From Shigella phage Shfl2, in the sequence record HM035025: a stretch of 64,000 nt of DNA; one strand, written 5' to 3'. The notes below the pieces were generated by a model. The model was given only the letters and a program-made list of their open reading frames with translations, was not told the origin of the DNA and did no database searches. This document shows positions 38,188-38,646 of this stretch, in pieces; the first letter of the stretch is position 1; every line of letters starts with the position of its first letter. The translations under genes were made by a program, and so were the position numbers.

Positions 38188-38646
38188 TTATTTTAAATCG
38201 TCTGCCCAATCGAGTTTAAGAGGTTCTTTGTATTCACGATCTAATACGACCGGAATTTGTACATCACCGCTAAATGATAAGGGCCCAACATTATAAGACA
38301 ATGTTATATGCGGTGTGTAATCATCAAAATCATGTGTAGCACCTAGTGCCCGCGCATACATGTGTCGACAGCGCAGATATTCAGAATCTAGCACAAGTAC
38401 AAGAGTCGATCCATCTTGTGTTTTCCACACTTCTAAATGTCCAGAAGAAGCTACTTCAAAACTTCCACTCGATGGAACATATGGAACATTTACTCTCGAA
38501 TAACATATGGTCGAATGAATTTTTTCTCTAGGAACTGGATTAGGAACATGTAAAGAGCGCTGGAGTTCTTCCAGCGCGTCAAGTGTTAATTCTGAAAACT
38601 TAGCTGCTACATAAAGACCCGTTGAAAAGTCTTTAAATTCCATCAT
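38188..38646 (-). CDS. 57B: gp57B, 2H-phosphoesterase-fold protein; T4 ortholog is the anti-CBASS nuclease Acb1
   Basis: 152 aa; two H-x-T/S-x motifs (HSTI, HITL); position between ipI locus and 57A. Confidence 0.8.

Follow-up and report, generated by a model that had tools for sequence, protein, structure and literature searches.

The gene 57B protein of Shigella phage Shfl2 is almost certainly the anti-CBASS nuclease Acb1, encoded at its usual place next to the internal-protein gene ip5

What does gene 57B of Shigella phage Shfl2 encode, and does it act together with the gene beside it? A first-pass annotation had read its 152-aa product as the anti-CBASS nuclease Acb1 and had placed it in a small anti-defence neighbourhood with an internal protein of the ipI locus. 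The window analyzed here is a 64,000-nucleotide stretch of the Shfl2 record HM035025, to which all coordinates refer. It is a Tequatrovirus segment, with about 96% identity over 24 kb to vB_EcoM_G4498 and G50, and the local 3.3 kb is about 97% identical to T6.

The T4 protein 57B (NP_049750.1) was found by activity-guided fractionation as the 3'3'-cGAMP-degrading activity and was named Acb1 (Hobbs et al. 2022, Nature 605:522, PMC9117128). Acb1 was defined in the same work by a 2H phosphoesterase fold and the tetrad H44, T46, H113, and T115. The ligand is contacted by the stacking residues Y12, W74, F107, and W147, by the adenine-specific E141 and by a lid formed by residues 145-152. Two crystal structures of the Acb1 of Erwinia phage FBB1, crystallized as G8-D152, are available, 7T26 (apo) and 7T27 (complex with 3'3'-cGAMP) (PMC9117128). 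The corresponding features of the Shfl2 gene are as follows.

38188..38646, minus strand: coding sequence of acb1 (gene 57B), ATG start, 152 aa and a stop codon (ORF call, Pfam, PDB, and T4 identity)
38506..38517, minus strand: first catalytic motif H44-S-T46-I, residues 44-47 (direct reading, family alignment, and Hobbs et al. 2022)
38299..38310, minus strand: second catalytic motif H113-I-T115-L, residues 113-116 (direct reading, family alignment, and Hobbs et al. 2022)
38191..38214, minus strand: C-terminal lid LDWADDLK, residues 145-152 including W147, same as in T4
38548..38550, minus strand: codon 33, CAT (His) compared with CGT (Arg) in T4, the sole amino-acid change from T4 Acb1

The two motifs reported by the first-pass annotation, HSTI and HITL, were read directly in the protein; they hold two of its six histidines, and no further H-x-[TS] occurs. 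In 20,000 composition-preserving shuffles the mean number of H-x-[TS] motifs was 0.89, and at least two were found in 22%. Since a pair would thus arise by chance with P of about 0.22, the motif count was not used, and the case for Acb1 rests on homology. In a Pfam scan with a threshold of E ≤ 0.01, the family PF23474 'Anti-CBASS protein Acb1' was the single match, with E = 3.9e-60 and 202.2 bits (cut-off 27) over the entire profile (1-144/144). The top match among all PDB sequences was 7T26/7T27 'Acb1' (E = 1.2e-61, query 9-149), with both HxT motifs aligned. A tblastn search of 50,697 phage records returned 1,470 with a homologue. The best was T4 X03016 with 99.3% identity, and an identical protein was found in none of the INPHARED phage records.

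The protein was also aligned directly with T4 57B (NP_049750.1/X03016), a check that the first-pass annotation had itself proposed. The two share 151 of 152 residues, the catalytic His motifs are retained, and the sole change is R33H. At the nucleotide level, the genes differ at 8 of 459 positions, seven of them synonymous and one nonsynonymous, which is the pattern that would be expected under purifying selection. The claim that the T4 ortholog has been characterized as Acb1 also held (PMC9117128). Orthology is supported by the 99.3% identity, by a matching position in the gene order, and by the retained tetrad and ligand contacts.

The functional residues were compared in a family alignment of nine members, comprising Shfl2, T4, FBB1, and six distant homologues (27-47% identity) from phages of Escherichia (RB16), Vibrio, Aeromonas, Acinetobacter, Salicola, and Klebsiella. 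The HxT/HxT tetrad H44, T46, H113, and T115 of Shfl2 aligns column for column with T4 and FBB1 Acb1. The stacking residues Y12, W74, F107, and W147 and the adenine-reading E141 are all present, as in T4. Across the nine members, G10, Y12, H44, T46, P112, H113, and T115 are invariant, while position 33 is occupied by H, R, K, G, or D. Because position 33 is variable and absent from the published contact residues, R33H falls at a tolerant site. With a mean pLDDT of 37.4, a single-sequence AlphaFold2 model of 57B was unusable and was discarded, so the compact 2H phosphoesterase fold was taken from the approximately 68% identity to 7T26 over 141 residues. The 2H fold predicted in this way from the solved FBB1 structure is in practice settled.

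We conclude that Shfl2 57B almost certainly encodes Acb1, a small protein that T4-like phages produce during infection and that would be a metal-independent 2H phosphodiesterase destroying CBASS signals. Identity, residues, and genomic position were obtained for the Shfl2 protein itself; the chemistry and the anti-CBASS phenotype are those of the published T4 and FBB1 work. In the proposed mechanism, a host CBASS cyclase (CD-NTase) that senses the phage would make cyclic di- or trinucleotides, and Acb1 would capture them in a U-shaped pocket. The bases would stack on Y12, W74, F107, and W147, E141 would read the adenine N6, and the lid 145-152 would shut over the ligand. In the strained ligand, the adenosine would be rotated and the scissile phosphate set over H44/T46/H113/T115, where the adenosine 2'-OH would attack the adjacent 3'-5' phosphodiester bond with no metal ions involved. 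Hydrolysis of the 2',3'-cyclic phosphate intermediate would then give a linear 3'-phosphate product, e.g., GpAp. With the signal destroyed, the CBASS effectors would stay inactive, cell suicide would not follow, and the phage cycle could be completed.

For T4, deletion of 57B abolishes the cGAMP-degrading activity, and phage without acb1 suffers a more than 300-fold drop in plating efficiency on CBASS hosts, with no cost where active CBASS is missing (PMC9117128). T4 Acb1 prevents activation of the CBASS effectors Cap5, Cap4, and CapV, and it does not cleave cGG, cA4, or 3'2'-cGAMP (PMC9117128). According to later work, it also consumes 2'3'-c-di-AMP, and its overexpression triggers the Panoptes decoy-nucleotide system (Doherty et al. 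2025). Panoptes was no longer activated by T4 Acb1 lacking residues 145-152, which was read as a loss of catalysis (Doherty et al. 2025). Deletion of acb1 in T4 leaves Panoptes defence unchanged.

The gene order was then obtained by mapping the T4 proteins onto the window. On the minus strand it is 4, 2, 3, 1, 57A, 57B, [ip locus], trna.4, trna.3, trna.2, and the tRNA genes. The following features lie upstream and downstream of acb1.

38643..38885, minus strand: gene 57A, tail-fibre assembly chaperone (Pfam GP57, E = 5.2e-51), directly upstream of acb1
39241..39248, minus strand: TATAAATA octamer inside gene 1, upstream of 57A-57B, a putative late promoter (pattern match)
35981-36803, minus strand: uninterrupted cluster of ten tRNA genes (Arg, Asn, Tyr, Met/Ile-CAU, Thr, Ser, Pro, Gly, Leu, Gln)

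57B had been described as lying upstream of 57A. In fact the minus strand encodes both, and 57B is transcriptionally downstream, with the 57A stop overlapping the 57B start in an ATGA at 38643-38646, just as it does in T4. An abutting junction, TAATG, is found in Vibrio, Aeromonas, and Acinetobacter phages, and in RB16 and KMI9 the two genes are separated by a spacer of about 50 nt that contains a hairpin. In this spacer, at positions 1408-1461 of the RB16 locus L003 and 1408-1458 of L008 from Klebsiella phage KMI9, a T-run follows a GC-rich hairpin (GGGGCTTCGGCCCCTTTTT), and the arrangement is terminator-like. The 57B proteins of these two phages also bear C-terminal extensions. The block 3-1-57A-57B is kept in T4 and RB32 as well as in RB16 and the Vibrio, Aeromonas, Acinetobacter, and Klebsiella phages, which represent five other Straboviridae lineages. 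A more apt description of acb1 is the final gene of a conserved block that borders on a plastic region. Between 35000 and 39700, the Rfam search returned the ten tRNAs only, and nothing within or beside acb1.

A scan for promoters and terminators gave counts no higher than those in shuffled sequences. Sites were kept only where they coincided with features annotated in T4 X03016, as positional inferences. The TATAAATA octamer sits inside gene 1 at an offset identical to that of the 'pot. -10 region (PL1)' in X03016; it is no commoner than chance across the 64-kb window, so its assignment as PL1 is one of position. A candidate PL1 at this place would fit the published onset of Acb1 activity, which appears at about 15 min in T4 infection (PMC9117128).

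On its other side, acb1 adjoins an internal-protein gene, and the relevant features are these.

37858..38115, minus strand: ip5, the ipI-locus allele for an internal head protein of 85 aa (RB32 Ip5 identity; PHROG 3499)
38116..38187, minus strand: spacer between 57B and ip5, containing a hairpin (GATGAGGTA...TACCTCATC) and an early-promoter-like site
37782-37873 and 38110-38203, no strand assigned: direct repeat copies of about 94 nt flanking ip5, 84% identical to each other and spaced 328-330 nt apart

The neighbour had been placed correctly at the ipI locus, but the allele is Ip5 and not IpI. Its product is 100% identical to RB32 Ip5, which is annotated 'replaces ipI', and it is matched by PHROG 3499 'internal head protein' (E = 1.2e-49). 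Identity to T4 IpI is 30%, and the similarity lies mainly within the N-terminal capsid-targeting leader MKTFKEF...TITE. The Ip5 leader, MKTFKEFATKTTITE followed by S, aligns with the leader of T4 IpI, whose mature peptide is annotated in X03016. Ip5 thus carries the mark of T-even Ip proteins, a leader MKT[FY]xEF... ending at an (I/L)xE prohead-protease site, and is putatively packaged into the capsid and injected. It shares with T4 IpI the locus, the leader, and the upstream promoter and hairpin, whereas the mature parts of the two proteins are unrelated in sequence.

The early-promoter-like site, TTTACA-17-TACTAT, lies at 38174-38146 on the minus strand and putatively drives ip5, not acb1. 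The spacer that contains it hardly differs from the one between 57B and ipI in T4, which is annotated with PE2 and a stem-loop in X03016. The repeat copy at 38110-38203 extends over the acb1 stop and the four codons before it. Each copy comprises an early-promoter-like site together with the final four codons and stop of the gene upstream (...DDLK* for Acb1 and ...EDLK* for Ip5), and such a cassette architecture is already noted in the RB32 record. The alleles at this locus are IpI in T4, Ip5 in Shfl2, and Ip7+Ip9+Ip5 in RB32. The repeats look like a recombination cassette that exchanges ip alleles among T-even phages.

Further genes of the window touch on the same subject. Three of them, besides Ip5, encode the leader MKT[FY]xEF.

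29190-29663, minus strand: DUF7412 protein, 157 aa, in the ipII/denV slot
29772-30350, minus strand: IpIII, 95% identical to that of T4
34617-35183, minus strand: protein of 188 aa, encoded between e.8 and the tRNA genes

Among the four leader-bearing ORFs, IpIII alone has a T4 counterpart with a known target. The ORF at 27321-27587 on the minus strand encodes 88 aa that are 100% identical to T4 Vs.4 and contain the Pfam Acb2/Tad1 hairpin domain (E = 7e-20). We take vs.4 to be acb2, a cyclic-nucleotide sponge. On that reading, the two known T4 anti-CBASS genes, acb1 and acb2/vs.4, are both present in Shfl2, 10.6 kb apart. NCBIfam held no model matching 57B, Ip5, or Acb2.

In T4, denV lies between vs.8 and ipII, and at this place in Shfl2 (29084-29190) the 157-aa Ip-like gene directly follows vs.8. 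For T4 denV, which encodes the pyrimidine-dimer repair enzyme endonuclease V, tblastn at E < 1e-3 found no homologue anywhere in the 64-kb window, and at the same threshold mobD, tk.1, e.7, and ipI of T4 had no match there either. The tRNA cluster of T4 has eight genes, and segB, which encodes a homing endonuclease, separates Arg from Ile, while that of Shfl2 is without segB and has tRNA-Asn and tRNA-Tyr in its place.

Two other readings of the 57B protein itself were weighed. It could be a LigT-like 2'-5' RNA ligase, or an RNA 2',3'-cyclic phosphodiesterase that acts on RNA, for example in tRNA repair. The family is labelled 'RNA ligase' in RefSeq and PHROG 755, one Acinetobacter phage record calls its homologue a 'putative RNA 2',3'-cyclic phosphodiesterase', and 57B, a member of the 2H superfamily, lies about 1.4 kb from the 10-gene tRNA cluster. 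The broad substrate tolerance of structural group 3 of the 2H enzymes, to which T4 Acb1 belongs, also leaves room for extra substrates (Doherty et al. 2025). However, 57B matched no LigT or 2'-5' RNA ligase profile in Pfam (E ≤ 0.01) or NCBIfam and has nothing beyond the generic paired HxT/S motif in common with these enzymes. The T4 protein, 99.3% identical, is the cGAMP-degrading activity and its deletion affects growth only with CBASS present (PMC9117128), and in distant phages 57B travels with 57A and not with tRNA genes. An RNA substrate as the main role is thus highly improbable. With no LigT-type profile match and with experimental work contradicting it, the 'RNA ligase' reading was rejected as a stale annotation, and the label appears to come from general 2H-superfamily similarity. 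We give even less credence to the idea that R33H makes this Acb1 weakened or shifted in specificity. The substitution is the sole amino-acid change from T4 and is absent from the phage records searched (INPHARED, best 99.3%), but position 33 varies in the family, has no published contact or catalytic role, and lies in a loop after helix 1 and before the first catalytic motif; elsewhere in 57B, the seven synonymous changes to one nonsynonymous point to purifying selection. It is very unlikely that R33H moves the substrate preference, e.g., away from the Panoptes decoy 2'3'-c-di-AMP, and we infer that the variant would behave like the T4 protein.

The relation of the gene to ip5 was weighed as well. 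acb1 and ip5 might form one co-regulated and co-inherited anti-defence module, since they adjoin at the ipI locus and the direct repeat flanking ip5 extends into the last acb1 codons. T4 IpI (Ip1) is injected and inhibits GmrS/GmrD, a type IV restriction enzyme, and Ip1, Ip2, and Ip3 of T4 each inhibit one specific GmrSD enzyme (PMC12373910, 2025). Against a module stand the hairpin and early-promoter-like site between the two genes and the swapping of ip alleles among near-identical phages while acb1 stays with 57A. The other anti-CBASS gene, the presumed acb2, is 10.6 kb away. None of the genes downstream of 57B at the distant Straboviridae loci examined bears a capsid-targeting leader, and the acb1/ip pairing is specific to T-even phages. 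Moreover, Ip5 is not mentioned, and no target is reported for it, in the main text of the paper that assigns the Ip1-3 targets (PMC12373910). A joint module is accordingly unlikely, and a single acb1-ip5 operon was given low weight in view of the separate promoter, the hairpin, and the allele swapping. Of the anti-defence neighbourhood proposed earlier, the adjacency of the ipI-locus gene stands, but this gene sits in a separate repeat-flanked cassette with its own early-promoter-like site, and as no target has been reported for Ip5, the term rests on analogy. Somewhat less doubtful, though still tentative, is the view that Ip5 is an injected inhibitor of a fourth specificity, directed at a GmrSD or other modification-dependent enzyme, and that the 57B/ip junction is a hotspot for swapping counter-defence functions. 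If this is true, counter-defence alleles are exchanged at the junction beside a fixed anti-CBASS gene.

Shfl2 acb1 is a known anti-CBASS nuclease gene at its usual place, and its identification is correct but ordinary. It has little discovery value, as Acb1 was identified, structurally solved, and genetically tested in 2022 and the Shfl2 copy is 99.3% identical. The labels 'RNA ligase' and 'hypothetical protein' persist for Acb1 in RefSeq and PHROGs, including 57B of T4 NC_000866 (NP_049750.1), and hundreds of public records, the T4 RefSeq entry among them, still carry such outdated labels for the family. That Shfl2 can be recorded as having both acb1 and acb2/vs.4 is of some practical use for predicting host range and for phage therapy directed at strains that carry CBASS or Panoptes.

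Finally, the Shfl2 protein was compared with the known Acb1 proteins. The most distant of these is 2H PDE-9, deposited as 'Anti-CBASS protein Acb1' (9Q2G/9Q2Y), whose sequence match to Shfl2 Acb1 is marginal only (E = 0.004). It resembles Acb1 in belonging to structural group 3, in its paired HxT motifs and in degrading 3'3'-cGAMP; in contrast, its lid is N-terminal, where that of Acb1 is C-terminal, and it largely spares 2'3'-c-di-AMP (Doherty et al. 2025 preprint). Panoptes is likewise not triggered by 2H PDE-9, whereas overexpressed T4 Acb1 triggers it (Doherty et al. 2025 preprint). FBB1 Acb1 is much closer, with approximately 68% identity over residues 9-149 and with H44, T46, H113, T115, Y12, the F/Y107 equivalent, W147, and E141 all aligned; it differs by an F where Shfl2 has W74 and by many conservative substitutions. 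T4 Acb1 is closest: its length, tetrad, stacking residues, E141, and lid are all the same, its gene overlaps 57A in the same ATGA, and it stands at the matching place in the order 3-1-57A-57B. The Shfl2 gene differs from it by R33H and seven silent nucleotide changes, and by the downstream neighbour, which is ip5 in Shfl2 and ipI in T4.
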